Source: Phormidesmis sp. (GTDB lineage: Bacteria > Cyanobacteriota > Cyanobacteriia > Leptolyngbyales > Leptolyngbyaceae). From it: a stretch of 64,000 bases of DNA. The notes beneath the pieces were generated by a model, which saw nothing but the letters and a program-made list of their open reading frames with translations, had not been told where the DNA came from and ran no database searches. Positions 36,905 through 45,689 of this stretch are shown here, piece by piece (within the stretch, counting starts at the first letter, position 1; each line of letters starts with the position of its first letter). A program made the position numbers and the translations under genes. The stretch spans positions 1,632,001-1,696,000 of the forward strand of contig CBDFJR010000002.1 in the NCBI GenBank assembly GCA_965248535.1, given 5' to 3'.

Positions 36905-37414
36905 ATGGCTTATCAGTGTGATTTAGGAACCGGGCAGCGGCTTTATCTCGAAAACCGAGGCACCCAGACGATCGTTAGGCTAACCAGTGGCAGCGCTCGA
37001 CAGCAGCAGAGTCAGCAGAGCAACTTTGAAACTGGAGAGTGGCAAACCTTGCCCAAAGTCTTTCGCACGGGCACGGGAATCATTTTGCAAATCGAGTCTG
37101 CCCAAAAGCAATCGTTTCTCAGTTTGCAAGCACAACGCATTGGCACCTTAAGCAGTTTGCCTGACATGACGGGTGCAGAGGTGCTGTCGCTCCAGTCTAC
37201 TGAGGCGATCGCGTCGTCGTTTAAGCCGATGGAGCCAATGCAGCCAATGCAGCCAATGCAACCAATGCAGCCGATGCAGATGACAATGGGCACAATGCAC
37301 ATGCAGATGAGCAGTCCCCAGAGCGCCCAGCGCTTTTGTTCTCAGTGTGGAGAATCGGTGAGAGAGAGCGATCGCTTCTGCTCTCACTGCGGCACCCAAT
37401 TATCAACTAGTTAA
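36905..37414 (+). CDS. zinc-ribbon domain protein with MQP repeats
   Basis: QQQ.Q...F.TG.W, (PMQ)n, FCSQCG...FCSHCG. Confidence 0.85.
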   Translation: MAYQCDLGTGQRLYLENRGTQTIVRLTSGSARQQQSQQSNFETGEWQTLPKVFRTGTGIILQIESAQKQSFLSLQAQRIGTLSSLPDMTGAEVLSLQSTEAIASSFKPMEPMQPMQPMQPMQPMQMTMGTMHMQMSSPQSAQRFCSQCGESVRESDRFCSHCGTQLSTS

Positions 37415-37526: not shown

Positions 37527-37600
37527 GCATAACGTTCCCGATCACCGGACACAGACAAACGATAACTTAAATTCGTTCCGGTGCAGCGGGGTTGTTCGGC
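37527..37600 (-). other. integron attC site
   Basis: Minus strand GCCGAAC (R'') ... GTTATGC (R'), 74 bp imperfect palindrome, 21 nt after the GNAT stop. Confidence 0.8.
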
Positions 37601-37621: not shown

Positions 37622-38137
37622 TCACTTTGTTTTAGCCTGTAAGAGCAGTTTCATCAGATGCTCATCATAAAATTGACCTTGATTAGAAAAAGCTTCATGT
37701 TCTGTCCCGTAAATGCAGAACCCCAGCGATTTGTAAAGTTGGATGGCAGCGTCTTGGACTGTGACGACCGTGAGATGTATCCTACGCAAGCTAGTATCTC
37801 GTTGAGCACGCACGAGGACTTCGGTTGCCAGTGCTCGTGCGAGACCACGCCGCCGAAAGTCAGGTCTAACATAGAGTCCAGCAATAAAACCACGATGCTT
37901 TTCATTCGCTTCTTCAAAACGTGAAAAGCGGATGGTGCCGACAAGAATTTCAGCCGAAAAAGCTCCAAGAATATATGTATCTTCAGATTCTTGGAGACGT
38001 AAAGCCATTGCTTCGAGTGCGAGCTTTTCTTCCTTTTCGGCTAGGGTGCCGAATGCAGGTGGTTGCTCACGCAATGCAGCCAAACGGAGTACTCGATATT
38101 CTTTTACGTCTGCGGGTGCAAGTGTTCGTATTGTCAT
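37622..38137 (-). CDS. GNAT N-acetyltransferase (gene cassette)
   Basis: LYV.PDFRRRGLA acetyl-CoA motif, A..LYKSLGF; bounded by GTTCGGC core site and attC. Confidence 0.9.
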   Translation of the reverse strand: MTIRTLAPADVKEYRVLRLAALREQPPAFGTLAEKEEKLALEAMALRLQESEDTYILGAFSAEILVGTIRFSRFEEANEKHRGFIAGLYVRPDFRRRGLARALATEVLVRAQRDTSLRRIHLTVVTVQDAAIQLYKSLGFCIYGTEHEAFSNQGQFYDEHLMKLLLQAKTK

Positions 38138-38182: not shown

Positions 38183-38260
38183 GCCGAACTATTGGATATA
38201 CGGAAACTTTCCGTATATCTCCCTAATTTGAGCAGATACCCCGAAGCTTTCCGTATATAG
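38183..38260 (-). other. attI-like site 1
   Basis: GTTCGGC core complementary to the cassette's attC R''; adjacent perfect 12-bp inverted repeat GATATACGGAAA-C-TTTCCGTATATC and a third TTTCCGTATAT. Confidence 0.55.
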
Positions 38261-38348
38261 CCCCTCACTTTTCATCAGATATCTTAGAGCAACGATCGCC
38301 CCCTCTCTTCCCAAAACCCGATCGCTTCCTTCTCTTCAAAATTCAGCC

Positions 38349-38377
38349 TTCCAAAAAACAAAAAACTCTTGTACAAT
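38349..38377 (+). promoter_or_regulatory. putative sigma70-type promoter of the module
   Basis: TTCCAA-17 nt-TACAAT. Confidence 0.5.
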
Positions 38378-38474
38378 ACACCGCAGTGATGGAGTTGTGC
38401 CCCGAAGTCTGATGTGGCTATCAGACTCCGAGGACTTCCATCCCTAGTTACTACCGATAACTCAGGAGGCGTTC

Positions 38475-38594
38475 ATGATTGTACACCGTCAGCTTTGCTA
38501 TGGGATCTTGAAAGGCTGGAATCAAGATCCTGCATACAGTTTTCCCCTCAACCGAATTTCTGAGCTATCAGAGTTTTTGTCCTCTTTGAATTAA
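38475..38594 (+). CDS. 39-aa leader peptide, copy 1 (MIVHRQLCYGILKGWNQDPAYSFPLNRISELSEFLSSLN)
   Basis: AGGAGG SD 5 nt before ATG; frame and length conserved in copy 2; below the ORF-track cutoff. Confidence 0.65.
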   Translation: MIVHRQLCYGILKGWNQDPAYSFPLNRISELSEFLSSLN

Positions 38595-38611
38595 TCGAGA
38601 GGACAAAAAAC

Positions 38612-38983
38612 ATGGCAGTTAGGACGATCGTGCCTAGCTCGATTTCGTTCACCATTGAGTTACGTTGCTCAATCGAAAAGCGTTATCGGGTGAGTGTGAC
38701 TTTGGATTTGCAAGAGCGTTATCTCTTTGTGTCGTCTGGCATTGTTTCGGATGTTAGCGACTGCATTGAAGAGTTCGTGTCTCAACTGAGTGAAATTTCA
38801 TCCAATCAACTAGCATTGCTGAAATGGGATGGCACGAGTGATTTGACGACCGAGTATCAGATTGTTCGAGTGTTGCCCGGTTATCAAGTAGAACGATCGC
38901 TTGTGAAGTTCAACATTGTTCTGGGCGATGGTTCATTAATTCAAGTAGAGGAATTGCACAACAAAACGACGATTCAACTGTGA
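38612..38983 (+). CDS. hypothetical protein, 123 aa, copy 1
   Basis: GAGG RBS; 8 aa differences from the copy at 45164, with many silent changes. Confidence 0.8.
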   Translation: MAVRTIVPSSISFTIELRCSIEKRYRVSVTLDLQERYLFVSSGIVSDVSDCIEEFVSQLSEISSNQLALLKWDGTSDLTTEYQIVRVLPGYQVERSLVKFNIVLGDGSLIQVEELHNKTTIQL

Positions 38984-39341
38984 TTAGGGTTGGGGAGCCG
39001 TCGATTATCTTTTGGGAATCTGTGCAGCCAGCGATCGGGCAACTTCTCGGTCTAGGTCTAATTCAAACTCTGATATTCCCCATTTTGGCGGCTCTCTAAC
39101 TCTGTAAATCTTTAGGGAATAAAGCGATCGTGTCTCCTTTAGGGCGCTAGATAATTCACCCTCTGTTGCGAAATGCCCGCAAATGGCACAAATTTTTAGG
39201 AATCAGAACACTAAGACTCATTCAGGTTGAGTCTGCTGGTGTTAAATGCCCTTGCCAAGGGTGGCTTGACCGATATCTCAATAATTCGACCCTCAGATGG
39301 ATGGTAGCTTGTGCTCTCAACGTCCATGACCATAACGGTTA

Positions 39342-40071
39342 GTCGCCTCAAGGGGTAGCGTTTCCTCTGTTTTGGCATCTATTAGACAAGCGGGGTAACT
39401 CGAACACGCAAGAGCGCTTTGATCAGTGGGTCGAGTTTTTGTGCGTCTTTGCACCCGAAGACATCGCTTTTTTGACCGCAGACCGAGAGTTTATTGGCAC
39501 CCAATGGTTTGCCTTGCTAATGGCAGAGCCTGTGACTCGCTTTCGCATCCGTATTCGCGAGTCGGAGTTCCTGTTTGATGGGCAGCAATCGCTTAAAACC
39601 ACGATTGTGTTTCAAGATTTGCAGCCTCATCAATCCAAGGTGCTGTCACGCAAACGACGGCTTTGGGGGCATTGGCTTTACTTGGCAGGATTACGACTCG
39701 AAGACGGGTCGTTGCTGGTGGTTGCCACGAACCATGAACCCTCCACTGCCATTGCTGACTATGCTCTGCGTTGGGGCATCGAAACCTTGTTTGGCTGCTT
39801 GAAAACTCGTGGCTTTTGCTTGGAGGCAACCCACCTTAAAGACCAGGAACGGCTCAAGAAGCTCATCGCTCTCTTAACCTTGGCATTTTGCTGGGCGCAT
39901 CGGGTTGGCGAATGGGTGGTGGAACGTCAGCCCATTCAAATCAAAAAGCATGGACGCAACGCCAGGAGCATCTTTCGTACCGGGTTAGATCACCTCCGCC
40001 AGATTTTACTCAACCTCGATACTCGTCAAGCGCAGTTTGTCCAAGTTCTAAAACTTTTGTCCTGTACTTAG
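39342..40071 (+). mobile_element. IS4-family element, 5'-truncated
   Basis: QGVAFPL.W..L.KRGNS remnant, ADREFIG, Y..RW.IETLF..LK..GF.LE; ends ...LSCT stop. Confidence 0.85.
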
Positions 40072-40108
40072 AACCTGGATACGGTCGGCTCCAATGCGAT
40101 CGTTAGCT
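40072..40108 (-). other. half attC site truncated by the IS4 element
   Basis: Minus CCAGCTAAC-GATCGCATTGGAGCCG is the exact complement of the cassette core GTTAGCTGG at 40933-40941. Confidence 0.6.
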
Positions 40109-40212
40109 GGAGGACGCACTGCTCTCTCCCCAATCCCATCTGACAGGTAACCTCGTGGGCAGTGTCGGAAGGTAGATTGCTGTCTAAGCGTTTTTGAGTA
40201 CCACAAACAACC

Positions 40213-40755
40213 TTATTTTGCGATTTCTAGTTCGACAGATCGGTAGAACTCTTTCACATGTTTAGGCGACTGAAGATGATATACTCGCTTGCTTTCCTTA
40301 GCTTTAGTCACGTATTCTCGATACTTTGGAGTGAGCTTCTTATTGCACAGCCAAACCGTATAATAACTGTTTAGCGTACCCTTCAAGAGCGGACTATTCT
40401 TGGGCCAGTTTTCTGGTGGAACTAGAAAGCCCTTCATGAATCGCTTCGTTACCCACCAATAGTGCTGGAGAACTGGCATATCCAAATAAACTAAGGTGTC
40501 TGCAACCTCCAGTCGTTCCCATACCGTATCCAACGATCCATATCCATCAATTATCCATTGGTCTTGCTGGAGGAGTTGATCATGAGCAGCTTTATAGTCT
40601 TCGTAGGGAACTTCGCTACCGCCAGGTTTATACTTCAGAAGGTCTAAAGCAACCATAGGCAAACCTGTCATTTCTGTTAAACGTTTGCTGAGCGTAGACT
40701 TCCCGCCTCCAGCATTACCAAATACAGCAATTTTATTCACGGTCATCTCCTTCAT
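40213..40755 (-). CDS. P-loop kinase-like protein (FlaR / DNA topology modulation family), gene cassette
   Basis: GNAGGGKST, WIIDG.G, ADT.VYLD. Confidence 0.85.
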   Translation of the reverse strand: MKEMTVNKIAVFGNAGGGKSTLSKRLTEMTGLPMVALDLLKYKPGGSEVPYEDYKAAHDQLLQQDQWIIDGYGSLDTVWERLEVADTLVYLDMPVLQHYWWVTKRFMKGFLVPPENWPKNSPLLKGTLNSYYTVWLCNKKLTPKYREYVTKAKESKRVYHLQSPKHVKEFYRSVELEIAK

Positions 40756-40934
40756 GAATGTTGCTTTAAACTACTCTTTAGCAATGAACTTTTACGGTCT
40801 AACTTACGGTACGTTGATAAGCTATTTCAGTGTCTGAAACAGATTCCAAGTGCTGTAACCCTTATGGGTACTTCTGGATCATTGGTGACAATGGCAGGTA
40901 CATACAAGGCTGCGCCTACACGAATGCCTCAGCC

Positions 40935-41017
40935 AGCTAACGTTCCGGTTGAGCGGCAGCAGATTGACCACGACGATAGACGCAAAGACTCTCAACTGCC
41001 CGCTCCAATCGGGTTGT
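40935..41017 (-). other. attC site interrupted by a group II intron (remainder at 43016-43020)
   Basis: Plus AGCTAAC-GTTCCGGTTGAGCGGCAG...CTGCCCGCTCCAATCGGGTTGT|TATGC; removing the intron restores GTTATGC. Confidence 0.8.
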
Positions 41018-43015
41018 GTACGCCCAGCATGGGCGTGAACTAATGGGGTGAAAGTCCCCTGGAGGAGAACCAGCGCCCAAATGATCCCAAAAGATCCGAG
41101 TGGTGATCACTCCTAGCTCAAGGCAAGGGCGTTTCCGTGAGGGAAGGTCTGAAGGAAGCCAGCGGCAAACCGACGAGCCGACGAACAGAAATGTCATAGA
41201 AGGCTGAGACCCCTGGGTGAGGAGCGCACAACACAACGAAACCTCTGGTTCAAGGGGCACAGTAAATGACACGGTTGCGGCGGGACAGTTCACGGTCTTA
41301 TCTGGGGAGGTCTGTGCGGTTGCGGTCTTAAAGATCATGGGAGTCTGACTGAGGTCTCGCGGGAAACGGCGAGGGAGCCACAGAACCCTAACGTCAAAAG
41401 ACAGCGCCCTGAAGAGTAATCTCAAGGGTTCACCGTACAGAAGTCAGCAGAGTCCATAGTAGTTTCCTTGTGAAACGAAGGGACGAACATGAACGAACTA
41501 AGGAGGAGCGATGAACAACTCAGACCCATCGATGAACCCGGATGGGGGAGATGGGGTTTGGCGTTCGGACAGAGAGCCAGCCTTAGACAACCTGATGGCG
41601 CGAATCTTAGAGCGCGACAATGTTCAAGCAGCCTGGAAACGGGTGCAGTCAAACAAGGGTGCGCCCGGTAGCGACGGGATGACCTTAGAAGACTTTCCTG
41701 CCTACGCCCGCGAACATTGGCAAGAGATTCGCCAGTCCTTACTCGATGGCAGCTACCAACCACGTCCTGTACGCCGGGTAGTGATTCCCAAGCCGAGAGG
41801 CAAGGGAGAGCGGAAATTGGGGGTTCCTTGTGTCATAGACCGAGTGATCCAGCGACAAGCCATCTTACAAGTGCTCACGCCAAGGGAAGCGGAAATTGGG
41901 GGTTCCTTGTGTCATAGACCGAGTGATCCAAGCCATCTTTGCTCACGCCAATCTTTGACCCAAGCTTTTCTGAGTCAAGCTATGGCAGCCGACCCCAGCG
42001 TTCGGCTCATGGAGCAATCCAACAGGTGAAAACGATTGTAAAAGCTGGATATCGTGTTGTGGTCGATTTGGATCTGGAGAAATTCTTTGATACCGTCAAC
42101 CATGATGTTTTGATGTCTCGTGTTTCCCGGAAAGTCACTGATAAAGTGCTTTTGGGGTTAATCGGTCGTTACCTGCGAGCCGGAGTGTTGGTCGGGAACA
42201 CCGTTGAACCGACCGACTGGGGAACCCCGCAAGGGTCTCCCCTTTCACCCCTGTTGTCGAATATCCTTTTAGATGATTTAGACAAAGAGCTAGAAGCGCG
42301 AGGACATCGGTTTGTTCGTTACGTGGACGACCTGGTTATTCTGGTCAAAAGCAGACGAGCAGGGCGACGGGTGATGGCGAAAATCAGCCGTTATTTGACC
42401 CAAACCCTCAGGCTCAGAGTCAATCGGGAAAAGAGTCGAGTGGTCAAGATTGAGGATTTGAATTACTTGGGATTTACGTTCCGAGGGATTCGCATTTTCG
42501 TCTGCCAGCAAGCTCTGCAAGACTTCCAGCATCGATTGCGCGGGTTAACCTCGCGCAGTTGGGGAGTCTCAATGTCAGAGCGTTTCGTGCGCTTGAACCG
42601 ATACTTACGGGGGTGGATGAACTACTTCGGCATTTCTCAGCACTACACCCCAATCGCAGAGCTAGATGGTTGGCTCAGGCGACGCATTCGCATGTGTTAC
42701 TGGAAACAGTGGCGCAGACCGAGAACGCGCATTGCTAACTTGCTCAAGTTGGGAACCAGTAAGCGTCATGCGATTTTGACCGGCATTAGTCGCAAAGGCT
42801 TTTGGCGTTTGTCAAAGACTCTCGCAACGCAAACGGGAATGACGAATGAGTGGTTAGAACAACAGGGATTGTTATCGATTCGCCAACTCTGGATGAAAGT
42901 ACAGGGTTACGCTTAAGTGATCAGCGTTGTTTGCGCGTCTTCATGAACCGCCCATTGCGGACCCGCATGATGGGTGGTGTGGGAGGGGAGAGTTAAATGC
43001 TCTCCTCGACCCGAT
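41018..43015 (+). mobile_element. group IIC intron (attC-targeting type)
   Basis: 5' GTACGCCCAGCATGGG; short domain V GAACCGCCCATTGCGGACCCGCATGATGGGTGG near 42945; DVI ending CCGAT; inserted at TTGT/T. Confidence 0.88.
41511..42916 (+). pseudogene. ltrA: group II intron reverse transcriptase/maturase, frameshifted by an internal duplication
   Basis: NKGAPG.DG, R.LG.P...DR.IQ, GTPQGSPLSPLL.NI, RYVDD, maturase X domain, no endonuclease; split at 41800-41950. Confidence 0.85.
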
Positions 43016-43291
43016 TATGCGTTGCTCGACACAACCGATCGCGCCCCAACTTCGCCAGACCGCACATCTCAAAAGACGAAGAACTCGGCATTCGCGGACG
43101 GATTTAAATCCTATGCGACCCGTCACCTCCCACTCTCAACGAAGTATCTTTGCTAAAGTCAACACCGATAAGTCGGCGCGATCGTTATAAACCACCTTAA
43201 CTTTCGCACTCACCAACCCGTTCTCAATATCGTTGATACTTAGATTAACGACAACTCTAAAAAACCGTGTTGACAGCTTGTCGGGCTGGCG

Positions 43292-43450
43292 GTCTAACTA
43301 CTATTTCTGCCGTTTGAACTCCTATCAAACAGGATAAATGCCTCTCTCAGAGAAATTATGCTGTATGCAAACCGGATAACTCCCATTTTTTTAGGAATTA
43401 TCCTGAATTCCCACAGGATAACTCTCCGATTTCGGGTAATTATACGGAAT
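43292..43450 (-). other. attI-like site 2
   Basis: GTTAGAC core site; upstream repeats CAGGATAA, CCGGATAA, TTATCCTG, TTATACGGA related to site 1. Confidence 0.45.
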
Positions 43451-43656
43451 GGCGCTCAGACTTCTCGATTCTAGGGGAGCCGTGAGTAAATTGTCTCGTT
43501 CCGATGAATCAGTCATGGCGCTGAGTCGATCGCATCCCTGCCGTTGCTCGACTGGAACATAAATCAGGGAGAAGTTACGATCGCCCCCCTCTCTTCCCAA
43601 AACCCGATCGCTTCCTTCTCTTCAAAATTCAGCATTCCAAAAAACAAAAAACTCTT

Positions 43657-44916
43657 GGGCACCTCGAAAAATTTGCCAAGAGGAGTCTTAACGTGAGACA
43701 AGTGTGAGATCATAGTTATAGAGCAGTGATGGGGCAATTGCAATGACACAGCCTGGATTTTGGGATTGGGAAACGCGCCAAGATAAGCTGAACCAGAAGC
43801 AAGACTTACTGGTGCGACTCAATGAGATTGTCCCCTGGGAAACTTTTCGCCCCTTGCTCGAACCCATTCATGACAAACCGCGCAAGAGTAATGCTGGACG
43901 CAAGCCGATGGATGTGATTGTGATGTTTAAGCTGCTGGTGTTGCAACAGTTGTACAACATTAGTGATGAAGCCTTGGAGTATCAAGTGAGTGACCGCTTA
44001 TCCTTCATGCAGTTTCTCGATTTTGGGTTAGCAGATGAGGTTCCAGATGTAACAACGGTATGGTTGTTCCGTAAGCAGTTAACAGAGCAAGCATTAATTG
44101 AACCATTGTTTGAGCAATTCGATGAGTATTTGATTCAGCAAGGCTACGCAGCTCAAGGAGGACAAATTGTCGATGCTACATTGATTCCCGTTCCCAAGCA
44201 GCACAACAGCAAGGATGAGAATCAACAGATTAAGCAAGGAGAGATTCCCCCATCGTGGCAAGACAACCCGCATCAACGTTCTCAGAAAGATAGCGATGCT
44301 CGATGGACGAAAAAGGGGGGTAAGAGCTACTTCGGCTACAAAGATCACATCAGCATTGATGCCCAACATGGGTTGATTCGTCAGTATGCTGTGACCGATG
44401 CCTCGGTTCATGATTCTCAAGTTTTGGGTCAACTCCTCGATGACGACAATGAGAGCGACAAGATTTGGGCAGATAGTGCTTACCGCGCTGAAGCAATTGA
44501 GGAAACGTTGAAGTTGATGCAGTTCGATAGTCAGATTCATGAGCGGGGATATCGCAACCGCCCGTTAACGGAAGAACAGAAGCAGTCTAATCGCACTAAG
44601 TCCACCACGCGCGTTAAAGTCGAGCATGTGTTTGGGTGTTGGGTGATGCAGATGGGTGGCAAACTGCTGCGTTCGATTGGCATTCAGCGGGCAACGGCAC
44701 AATTGGGATTGAAGAACTTGACCTACAACTTGTTGCGGTACACCTTCTTGGAAACGAAAGCAGTCGGTTAAGAAGTGGGAGCAGGAGTGATCTTGAATGG
44801 AGCCTGGATGAATCAATATTGCTCAGGTGAATGAGGGAGAAGCGATAGGCTTACATAGCTCTCTTCAGTCTCATTTGAGATCCTGATTCGCTAAAAATCA
44901 ATTAATCGAGGTGCCC
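43657..44916 (+). mobile_element. IS5-family insertion sequence, complete
   Basis: TIR GGGCACCTCGA...TCGAGGTGCCC; TSD TCTT (CTCTTG if the ends are 1 nt shorter); empty site present in module copy 1. Confidence 0.93.
43743..44771 (+). CDS. IS5-family transposase
   Basis: VDAT, DARWTKK, FGYK.H, ADSAY, R.KVEHVFG. Confidence 0.95.
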   Translation: MTQPGFWDWETRQDKLNQKQDLLVRLNEIVPWETFRPLLEPIHDKPRKSNAGRKPMDVIVMFKLLVLQQLYNISDEALEYQVSDRLSFMQFLDFGLADEVPDVTTVWLFRKQLTEQALIEPLFEQFDEYLIQQGYAAQGGQIVDATLIPVPKQHNSKDENQQIKQGEIPPSWQDNPHQRSQKDSDARWTKKGGKSYFGYKDHISIDAQHGLIRQYAVTDASVHDSQVLGQLLDDDNESDKIWADSAYRAEAIEETLKLMQFDSQIHERGYRNRPLTEEQKQSNRTKSTTRVKVEHVFGCWVMQMGGKLLRSIGIQRATAQLGLKNLTYNLLRYTFLETKAVG

Positions 44917-45026
44917 TCTTGTACAATACACCGCAGTGATGGAGTTGTGCCCCGAAGTCTGATGTACCAGATCAGAACTCCGAGGACTTCCATCCCTAGT
45001 TAGCGTTCATAACTCAGGAGGCGTTC

Positions 45027-45146
45027 ATGATTGTACACCGTCGGCTTTGCTATGGGATCTTGAAAGGCTGGAATCAAGATCCTGCATACAGGTTTTACCC
45101 CAACCCAATGTCTGAGAGATCCGTGTTTTTGTCCTCTTTGAATTAA
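45027..45146 (+). CDS. 39-aa leader peptide, copy 2 (MIVHRRLCYGILKGWNQDPAYRFYPNPMSERSVFLSSLN)
   Basis: AGGAGG SD; same length and frame as copy 1. Confidence 0.65.
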   Translation: MIVHRRLCYGILKGWNQDPAYRFYPNPMSERSVFLSSLN

Positions 45147-45163
45147 TCGAGAGGACAAAAACT

Positions 45164-45535
45164 ATGGCAGTTAGGACGATCGTTCCTAGCTCGATTTCGT
45201 TCACCATTGAGTTGCGTTGCTCAATCGAAAAGCGTTATCGGGTGAGTGTGGTTTTAGATTTACAAGAGCGTTATCTCTTCATGCCCTCTGGCATTGTCTC
45301 GGATGTTAGCGACAGCATTGAAGAGTTTGTGTCTCAACTGAGTGAAATCTCGTCTAATCAACTAGCATTTCTAAAATGGGATGGCACGAGTGATTTGACA
45401 ACCGAGTATCAGATTGTTCGAGTGTTGCCCGGTTATCAAGTAGAACGATCGCTTGTGAAGTTCAACATTGTTCTGGGGAGTGGTTCATTAATTCAAGTAG
45501 AGGAGGTGCCCAACAAAACCACCATCCAACTCTAG
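45164..45535 (+). CDS. hypothetical protein, 123 aa, copy 2
   Basis: Paralog of 38612-38983. Confidence 0.8.
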   Translation: MAVRTIVPSSISFTIELRCSIEKRYRVSVVLDLQERYLFMPSGIVSDVSDSIEEFVSQLSEISSNQLAFLKWDGTSDLTTEYQIVRVLPGYQVERSLVKFNIVLGSGSLIQVEEVPNKTTIQL

Positions 45536-45689
45536 AACAGTTGGGGTTAGGGAGTCGATTGTTCTTTAATGGATCGTGAAACAACCTGTTTGATCAACGC
45601 ACTTGCACCCAAAGCGGGTTCATCACTGGTTCCTTTATGGTCGCCCGGCTCCCTAACGGAAGACACGATCGTCAACCATACACACAACA

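Follow-up and report, generated by a model that had tools for sequence, protein, structure and literature searches.

Integron platforms are usually described as consisting of an integrase gene (intI), an attI site and a cassette promoter. In the CopA/CopT-tap-repA system of plasmid R1, as in that of IncB/IncI-alpha, the downstream gene has its ribosome-binding site in a structure whose opening requires translation of a leader open reading frame (ORF), and the leader loops of R1 are also contacted by an antisense RNA through kissing; in the RNA I/RNA II kissing of ColE1, the specificity determinants are 7-nt anticodon-like loops on short stems. Here we describe, in Phormidesmis, a self-contained unit of ~0.75 kb, called the module in what follows, in which a structured leader, a 39-codon upstream ORF (uORF) and an ORF for a 123-aa orphan protein are found at the intI-distal end of integron platforms. 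Two of its copies, A and B, lie in the window, i.e. the whole 64-kb stretch of DNA that was analysed, which belongs to the genome referred to as G000; the 17 copies found in this genome are referred to as its own copies.

Several described systems share one or another trait with this module. The Ibs/Sib loci of E. coli are multi-copy type I loci with short variable recognition domains, and each antisense RNA represses only its cognate mRNA (PMC2943612). Promoter-bearing toxin-antitoxin (TA) cassettes of sedentary chromosomal integrons have been proposed to stabilise or police the arrays (PMC13108822), clusters of attC sites lacking an integrase (CALINs) and In0 elements are integron relics by the IntegronFinder definition, with loss of intI being common (PMC4889954), and cyanobacterial integrons and integrase-less arrays were already known (PMC4889954, PMC2426708). 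Within the part of the literature on cyanobacterial integrons that was covered, by titles and abstract openings, no such unit was mentioned, and the terms 'Phormidesmis' and 'integron' together gave unrelated papers only. The integron platform and the proposed antisense/leader-ORF control are of known kinds, and the module combines them around a protein without known relatives.

The 17 copies found in G000 (5.03 Mb, 5 contigs) shared 83-92% nucleotide identity within unrelated flanks, which is far beyond chance; the two copies of the window, which the original prediction had taken for a duplication, are therefore 2 of the 17 members of a family, whose more than 400 relatives belong almost without exception to Phormidesmis. 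The 123-aa ORF was intact in 16 of the 17 own copies, the remaining one being frameshifted. In the 120 pairs of intact own copies the non-synonymous divergence (dN) was 0.055 and the synonymous divergence (dS) 0.445, giving a dN/dS of 0.12 as compared with 1.1 and 3.2 in the shifted-frame controls, showing that the 123-aa ORF truly encodes a protein and that each one of these old copies has been kept open. A word-indexed search gave 418 homologous proteins at E<=1e-3, the best 120 of which were 83-100% identical and bore 'hypothetical protein' as their sole name, in Phormidesmis records, and an HMMER scan of 1.84 billion cluster representatives gave 12 clusters, the farthest full-length members being 46-51% identical. 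When G000 and 40 relatives were considered together, the module was present in 8 of the 41 genomes, comprising all eight of the genus Phormidesmis with 4-21 matches per genome, and it was absent from the genomes of the 33 other genera among them. A profile search of the order was positive for 9 of 90 genomes and 2 of 27 genera. The GTDB species collection yielded 64 loci, all of them from Phormidesmis or Leptolyngbyales metagenome-assembled genomes (MAGs) except one 49%-identical relative in a Leptolyngbyaceae MAG, which we call L076. A metagenome protein-pattern scan using distant members gave no relative, and the 35 loci obtained by a metagenome DNA-pattern scan were all of the Phormidesmis type, so that no covariation was gained from them.

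The anatomy of the module was read from copy A, on the plus strand. Its upstream region and predicted promoter (38292..38377) contain TTCCAA at 38349-38354 and, after 17 nt, TACAAT at 38372-38377, and are near-invariant across 70 copies. Hairpin 1 (38409..38424) has a 5-bp stem, CTGAT/ATCAG, and a hypervariable loop of 6 nt here and of 7 nt in most copies; hairpin 2 (38446..38462), with a 5-bp stem AGTTA/TAACT and a hypervariable 7-nt loop, lies immediately 5' of the ribosome-binding site of the uORF. The uORF of 39 codons (38475-38594, stop TAA at 38592-94) is preceded by AGGAGG at 38464-38469 and contains a 9-bp hairpin (38503-38530) within its nucleotide-invariant first 21 codons. The masking hairpin (38579..38604, GTCCTCT.../...AGAGGAC) pairs the ribosome-binding site GAGAGGAC of the 123-aa ORF, which occupies 38612..38983, and the right-end inverted repeat (38989..39100), GTTGGGGAGCC ... 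GGCTCTCTAAC, forms the end of the conserved unit. The terminal inverted repeat of the unit reads GTTAGGGAG...CTCCCTAAC and is built from the core-site-like words GTTAGGG/CCCTAAC.

Copy B, on the same strand, consists of an upstream part with the -35 (43577..43657) and a main part (44916..45657) with the -10 at 44922-27, the leader hairpins, the uORF at 45027-45146, the ORF at 45164-45535 and the right-end inverted repeat at 45546-45657. The two parts are separated by an insertion sequence of 1258 bp (43658..44915, plus strand), with 10-bp inverted ends GGCACCTCGA and a 6-bp direct repeat CTCTTG, whose transposase (43743-44771) matched DDE_Tnp_1 (E 5e-30) and DUF772, a pair from which we take the element to belong to the IS5 family. 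It splits the module precisely between the -35 and the -10 and probably silences the promoter of this copy, although the downstream ORF is intact. Copies A and B were aligned as three repeat pairs, 38299-38371/43585-43657 (99%), 38366-38415/44916-44965 (100%) and 38425-38724/44977-45276 (92%). The promoter, the two hairpins, AGGAGG with a 39-codon ORF, the masking hairpin and the 123-aa ORF listed in the original prediction could thus each be located in copy A, and the repeat and its splitting by an insertion sequence were real; the bounds given for a unit of ~690 bp (38292-38983 and 43577-45535) proved too short, because the conserved unit ends at the terminal inverted repeat, at 39100 in copy A and at 45657 in copy B, and the left conserved part of copy B starts from ~43295. 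Both window copies carry an insert of ~70 nt in the loop of the terminal repeat (39010-39080 and 45560-45645). The one of copy B has a stretch, gcacttgcacccaaagcgggttcat, in common with the copy at C5:798283 of G000, suggesting a small mobile insert.

The module had a regular place in the platforms, in which the order was cassette array (minus strand), attI, intI (plus strand) and module (plus strand), the module forming the intI-distal end. In the genus (8 genomes), intI was found 12 times, as a gene or as a fragment, and in 10 of these cases a module followed ~300 nt downstream on the same strand, the exceptions being the second intI of G000 and a fragment in a 65%-complete genome. The intact intI of G000 (C2:1131581-1132543) lies on the same strand as the adjoining module, with its stop ~290 nt before the ATG of the ORF, and by its score of 466 bits with TIGR02249, against a cut-off of 265, it is a bona fide integron integrase gene. 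The attachment to cyanobacterial integron platforms was therefore borne out, the module being the regular 3' neighbour of intI in the genus, and its suggested location where an integron integrase would sit has to be corrected, since it is not a replacement of intI and adjoins the former place of this gene. A tblastn search of the window gave no IntI or tyrosine recombinase, as had been claimed, but platform B holds an intI remnant (43504..43575, plus strand) made up of the first 24 codons with one stop (tblastn with the IntI of locus L056, 62.5% over 24 aa, E 1.2e-5 in a 500-nt subject). These 24 codons next to copy B imply that intI was deleted and that the module now abuts attI, and both platforms of the window have lost intI. 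Upstream of the 64 related loci, a full intI was found in 6, intI remnants in 4, type 1 attI-like repeats in ~15 and a type 2 region in ~7.

These two types of attI-like region are represented by one window platform each, neither with an assigned strand. The type 1 region of platform A (38186..38291) is made of repeated GATATACGGAAA..TTTCCGTATAT palindromes of the repeat family D5, with a putative crossover read at AATAG|TTCGGC (38189/38188, minus strand), and is presumed to serve as attI; a type 1 sequence was also present 5' of the intact intI of G000 (C2:1132596-1132772). The type 2 region of platform B (43295..43503) has a sharp outer end, c|TAACTACTATTTCTGCCGTTTGAAC (reverse strand ...AATAGTAG|TTAGAC). 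It was common to 8 module copies and one solo genome copy, the sequence beyond being unrelated, and it was homologous to the sequence 5' of intI in L056. The sharp outer end of attI in these 8 own copies and the solo fragment can be read as ...AGTAG|TTAGRY on the reverse strand, on which the opposite end of the unit is G|TTAGGGAG.

An attC covariance model, R1, was built from 8 sites of G000 and scanned over 8 kb upstream and 5 kb downstream of each own copy. It gave 21 matches at E<1e-3, 3 of them training sites, around 10 of the 17 copies, all 21 on the attI side of the module and in one relative orientation. In the window these included, in line with the attI-like site and minus-strand attC array that had been described beside the copies, one attC in each array. 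The attC at 37527..37600 (minus strand; R'' GCCGAAC ... R' GTTATGC; 56.8 bits, E 1e-12) was a training site and belongs to a GNAT acetyltransferase gene (37622..38137, minus strand; Pfam Acetyltransf_1, E 2.5e-18), the first cassette of array A; this cassette starts with TTCGGC, complementary to the R'' box GCCGAAC of its own attC, and by these marks the GNAT gene is a textbook first cassette. The attC of array B (40935..41023, minus strand; 26 bits, E 3.6e-4) lies between copies A and B, and with respect to copy B it is on the attI side. The module itself had no attC, as there was no R1 match at 38989-39100 or 45546-45657. For the same reason the module as an attC gene cassette was rejected; its terminal repeat reads GTT...AAC, the mirror of attC.

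The histories of the module and of the adjacent intI were uncoupled, as indicated by their mismatched identities: IntI pairs that were 54-68% identical flanked ORFs that were 80-92% identical, and one IntI pair at 97% flanked modules at 85%. This bears on the reading in which the 123-aa protein would be an accessory or regulatory factor of integron recombination, binding attI, the terminal repeat or IntI and tuning cassette capture or intI expression, and platforms without intI would retain it since their attI is still used by IntI provided in trans. Such a factor would agree with the consistent place ~300 nt behind intI, with the retention of the module together with attI after intI loss, and with a unit ending in an inverted repeat of core-site-like words. 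However, a trans-acting protein would make 17 copies, 16 of them with an intact ORF, redundant; the module of L076 has no intI within 4 kb; the uncoupled histories are hard to reconcile with it; and no DNA-binding or recombinase-partner fold was recognised by Foldseek against the PDB or by VIA-align. We regard this explanation as unlikely.

Only ~6 of the 51 module positions in relatives, taken as positions whose right flank is orthologous in G000, were shared with G000. In P. priestleyi ULC007 (L053 2015-4480), a 2.47-kb block comprised two minus-strand TA pairs (DUF433/PIN-like and HigA/RelE-like) and the module, and at C2:150636-150644 of G000 the flanks of this block met at a lone CTAAC, which reads GTTAGAT on the opposite strand; the junction was exact on the left and blurred by ~60 nt on the right. 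For the copy at C5:2447589 the search for an empty site found only the right flank conserved in relatives, the adjoining sequences being different, and for that at C5:1167841 only the left flank. Both ends of the unit fit IntI-type recombination at GTT and possibly whole-platform insertion, the basis being this one imperfect empty site. The unit, or the whole platform, could accordingly be seen as a mobile element with the 123-aa protein as a novel mobility factor inserting site-specifically at GTTAG-like sites, an idea favoured by the two sharp ends, which carry TAAC, by the ULC007 block as compared with the uninterrupted single-CTAAC site of G000 and by the few shared positions. It fits poorly, however, with copies that are old (dS 0.45) and yet intact in 16 of 17 cases, unlike decaying transposon copies, and with the lack of similarity to any transposase or recombinase in Pfam and NCBIfam; IntI itself could explain the GTT junctions, and the sole empty site is blurred, the other searches having given no clean result. 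We consider a novel mobility factor quite improbable. An element of the IS200/IS605 type was also tried and rejected, as there was no Y1 transposase.

Some partial and solitary copies were seen as well. Solo copies of the last ~45 codons of the ORF with the terminal repeat lay 0.5-0.9 kb behind full copies in L039 (4902-5024), L063 (2542-2662) and L115 (2521-2643) and several times in the genomes G001 and G003; between the full and the solo partial copies there was an insert of ~530 nt with its own tandem repeats, which looks like the entry of another element at CAGATT|GTTCGAG inside the ORF. A solo module of G000 (C5:1266194) begins, by a reading by eye, directly 3' of a tRNA-gene-like sequence.

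Apart from the loops of hairpins 1 and 2, the leader hardly varied in its nucleotides. Entropy was near zero from the -35 to codon 21 of the uORF (70 copies), beside an ORF with a dS of 0.45, implying that the constraint is on nucleotides and not on the peptide. The uORF, whose peptide is polar, started with ATG in 101 of 102 copies and measured 39-40 codons in 98 of them, the sole length change in an otherwise intact uORF being one in-frame 3-nt deletion, and its stop always fell within the loop of the masking hairpin. One compensatory pair was found in the stem extension of the masking hairpin, as G:C in 49 copies and A:T in 9. A leader ORF ending in structure over the downstream ribosome-binding site, as in R1 CopA/tap/repA, can be read both in copy A and in L076, and the layout that had been interpreted as that of a tightly silenced gene (hairpins, uORF and masked ribosome-binding site) was kept in 98 of 102 copies and in this distant relative. 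Rfam at the gathering threshold gave two group II intron domains only over the window and, when relaxed to E up to 5 for 38250-39150, nothing beyond SAM-V and PVT1 matches of the level expected by chance. A decayed copy, L071, had lost several features together, with ACG in place of the uORF ATG, GGAGA in place of GGAGG in the ribosome-binding site and an insert of ~150 nt in the ORF.

On the minus strand, an invariant TACAAT was present at the start of the uORF. The leader might then act mainly on that strand, as an outward promoter with a structured 5' region running through attI into the array (Pc-like), the ORF being a passenger. In addition to this TACAAT, replaced by TAAGAT at the same place in L076, such an arrangement could count on a distance of only 300-500 nt to the attI crossover in intI-less platforms and on the nucleotide invariance, which is strand-neutral. 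But in complete platforms it would need to cross ~1 kb of intI in antisense, the geometry of hairpin, uORF stop and ribosome-binding site is meaningful on the plus strand only and was kept in L076, no promoter was called by the consensus scan, and solo modules without arrays retain the leader. A mainly minus-strand role thus seems to us very unlikely.

The loops of hairpins 1 and 2 were the only hypervariable spots of the leader. In 62 copies we found 29 distinct sequences of loop 1 and 47 of loop 2, and the mean pairwise identity among own copies was 0.48 and 0.37, respectively, as compared with ~0.66 expected at neutral sites (an estimate from dS). Loop 2 identity was 0.33-0.39 even for pairs with ORF third positions 80-95% identical. 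Loop 1 followed the pattern Y-U-N-N-N-A-R, position 2 being a U in 46 of 58 and position 6 an A in 47 of 58, which in sequence terms is an anticodon-loop or U-turn pattern and is identical when read on the complementary strand. Identical loop sequences reappeared in different pairings among copies, from which it follows that the copies exchange segments. Mutual information among the leader columns gave no Watson-Crick partner elsewhere in the leader for either loop. T-box-like or tRNA-mimic loops were discarded, as no pattern was seen in the loop triplets, which were inspected by eye only.

L076, which comes from another genus and has 49% protein identity, kept the -10, two hairpins with 7-nt loops and the blocks GAGGACTTCC and GGAGGCGTTCATGAT, as well as a hairpin midway along the uORF and a masking hairpin whose loop again contains the uORF stop. 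The four stems of L076 all differed in sequence (hairpin 1 TTTGG/CCAAA, hairpin 2 GATA/TATC), and its uORF had 31 codons and encoded a different peptide. It is only a single independent lineage, but this pattern of kept structures and changed letters is what would be expected of a conserved RNA design.

For the 123-aa protein, Pfam gave no family, PADLOC just a sub-threshold DUF2290 match (E 0.014) for one of three members, and NCBIfam matches far under the cut-off, with nothing usable for its distant members either; no transposase or recombinase family was found for it (Pfam, NCBIfam) nor for the 39-aa product, for which the two uORF peptides of the window were scanned with Pfam alone. An AlphaFold2 model from an 18-row alignment (pLDDT 88, pTM 0.82) predicted three strands, a 30-residue helix and three strands (beta3-alpha-beta3, modelled soluble). 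No convincing fold match was obtained with Foldseek against the PDB (best E 0.034), VIA-align against 48,161 chains (best Z 4.4) or BFVD viral models (best E 0.064), and the ESM Atlas gave nothing usable. Such weak matches to a model are no proof of a new fold, and none of them hints at a function. The absence of a recognised motif, noted at first from the letters, was thereby upheld by homology and structure searches, the former having given 418 homologues; these searches together matched no known family or fold. The suggestion of a type I-like toxin did not survive, as the product is predicted to be a 123-aa soluble beta/alpha protein. A strict type I toxin-antitoxin system, i.e. a small membrane peptide toxin with an antisense RNA, would account for a layout resembling hok/mok/sok and CopA/tap/repA and for hypervariable recognition loops among paralogues; however, neither product is a small hydrophobic peptide, the modelled fold is soluble and the second half of the uORF peptide is not conserved, which leaves this explanation with hardly any likelihood.

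Our proposal is that the gene of the 123-aa protein is off by default, is controlled copy by copy through antisense RNA and the uORF, and perhaps acts as an addiction module linked to the platform; we put it forward tentatively, its chances being somewhat short of even. It builds on the copy number, the platform position, the real and constrained protein, the nucleotide-level constraint on the leader and the reshuffled hypervariable loops, which are established. The ORF would be off by default, with its ribosome-binding site locked in a hairpin. The stop of the 39-codon uORF is in the loop of this hairpin, and nothing but a ribosome translating the uORF to its end would be able to open it. Control of access to the ribosome-binding site of the uORF itself would reside in the two hairpins upstream, with whose anticodon-like loops (Y-U-NNN-A-R) a putative cis-encoded antisense RNA would form kissing contacts; this RNA possibly starts from the invariant TACAAT that is present on the minus strand across the start of the uORF. 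As the loops differ among copies, each copy would be silenced solely by its own antisense RNA. The most speculative step is an addiction or policing role, which would make each attI platform costly to lose; the intactness of 16 of 17 old copies after intI loss indicates selection on every copy, and such a role would fit it.

Several observations weigh against this proposal. The role in addiction or policing is drawn by likeness to the TA cassettes of chromosomal integrons, and toxicity is purely conjectural; Pfam, PADLOC and NCBIfam place the protein in no known toxin, antitoxin or defence family, and it resembles no solved or viral fold in the searches described above. Neither attI nor attC could be recognised near six of the 17 own copies, the module was missing from one of the two intI genes of G000, and L076 had no intI within 4 kb upstream; the link to integrons, though strong, is therefore not obligatory. 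In 9 related loci, 8 of the attC matches were upstream of the module and one (L014) was just downstream. The invariant leader could function on the minus strand or at the DNA level. In the second half of the uORF, entropy was 0.72, 0.62 and 0.76 by codon position, with no codon periodicity, and frame +1 was as stop-free as frame 0 in this variable half, suggesting that the uORF peptide sequence as such is not conserved and that its translation is only predicted. A consensus scan for promoters and terminators on both strands of 38200-39200 found no sites; the promoter was not called because its -35 matches at only 3 of 6 positions. Metatranscriptome contigs from 4 runs (2 studies) contained relatives of the leader and the ORF, and these are unstranded, have no start positions and may include DNA.

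A broader form of the proposal makes the orphan protein a fourth conserved component of the platform, besides intI, attI and the cassette promoter; it would be RNA-gated, and its copy-specific antisense lock, formed by the two hypervariable anticodon-like loops, would make each attI platform individually addictive. The platform would be an integrative circle (terminal GTTAGGG repeat, module, intI and attI) using its attI to enter secondary GTTAG sites; each genome would in this way receive 4-21 platforms, from which intI is later lost while attI and the lock stay. This whole scheme appears to us decidedly unlikely.

Among the other features of the window, a group II intron was found in array B (41131..42916, plus strand), antisense to the cassettes and ~100 nt from the attC match at 40935-41023 (Rfam RF02001, 114 bits, and RF01998, 55 bits; RVT_1, GIIM and TIGR04416). 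Its reverse-transcriptase/maturase ORF was split into the overlapping frames 41511-42029 and 41939-42916, beside the tandem repeat D4 (41800-41851 and 41879-41930, 79-nt spacing), and the enzyme therefore looks broken. Also in array B, 40213-40755 (minus strand) is probably a cassette gene and encodes a 180-aa P-loop protein that scored 83 bits with models for 'DNA topology modulation protein', below their cut-off of 215. Between both platforms, 39439-40071 contains a C-terminal DDE transposase fragment (DDE_Tnp_1, profile positions 78-199) that looks like a truncated insertion sequence, and just past the GNAT cassette, on the strand opposite to the cassettes, 36905-37414 (plus strand) encodes a zinc-ribbon protein with a PMQ/PME repeat run.

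A further unit is thus kept beside integrases that are only 54-68% identical, and in most platforms of a genome it is still there after intI has gone. This would point to a layer of platform maintenance or control that has escaped recognition, and the module may explain how one bacterium holds many integrase-less attI platforms. The 123-aa family has a confidently predicted fold and no known relative, and the dozens of natural leader variants, whose differences are almost confined to two 7-nt loops, offer an unusually clean system for studying the specificity of RNA-RNA recognition and the cross-talk of paralogues.

As compared with the known systems, the module resembles R1 CopA/tap/repA in that its short leader ORF follows a structured region with recognition hairpins; unlike R1, the downstream gene is no replication initiator (no Rep family match), the module is chromosomal, multi-copy and integron-linked, and the antisense RNA is only proposed. 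The 7-nt anticodon-like loops on short stems are similar to those of ColE1, although there is no replication primer or plasmid context and kissing is likewise only proposed. With Ibs/Sib the module shares the presence of paralogous copies in one genome, and the same logic is proposed for its hypervariable loops; in contrast to the tiny hydrophobic toxins of those loci, it has a 123-aa orphan, modelled as soluble, and a uORF coupling step, the antisense RNA and toxicity being hypothetical. Like the TA cassettes, it is a self-promoted, selfish-looking gene tied to chromosomal integrons, but those cassettes bear attC, lie inside the array and belong to known type II families, whereas the module lies outside the array behind intI, bears no attC and belongs to no known family. 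Finally, the two loci of the window are, like CALINs, attC cassette arrays without an integrase; unlike CALINs, they retain at the intI-less end an attI and a conserved non-integrase unit, which is found in 4-21 places (matches) per genome.

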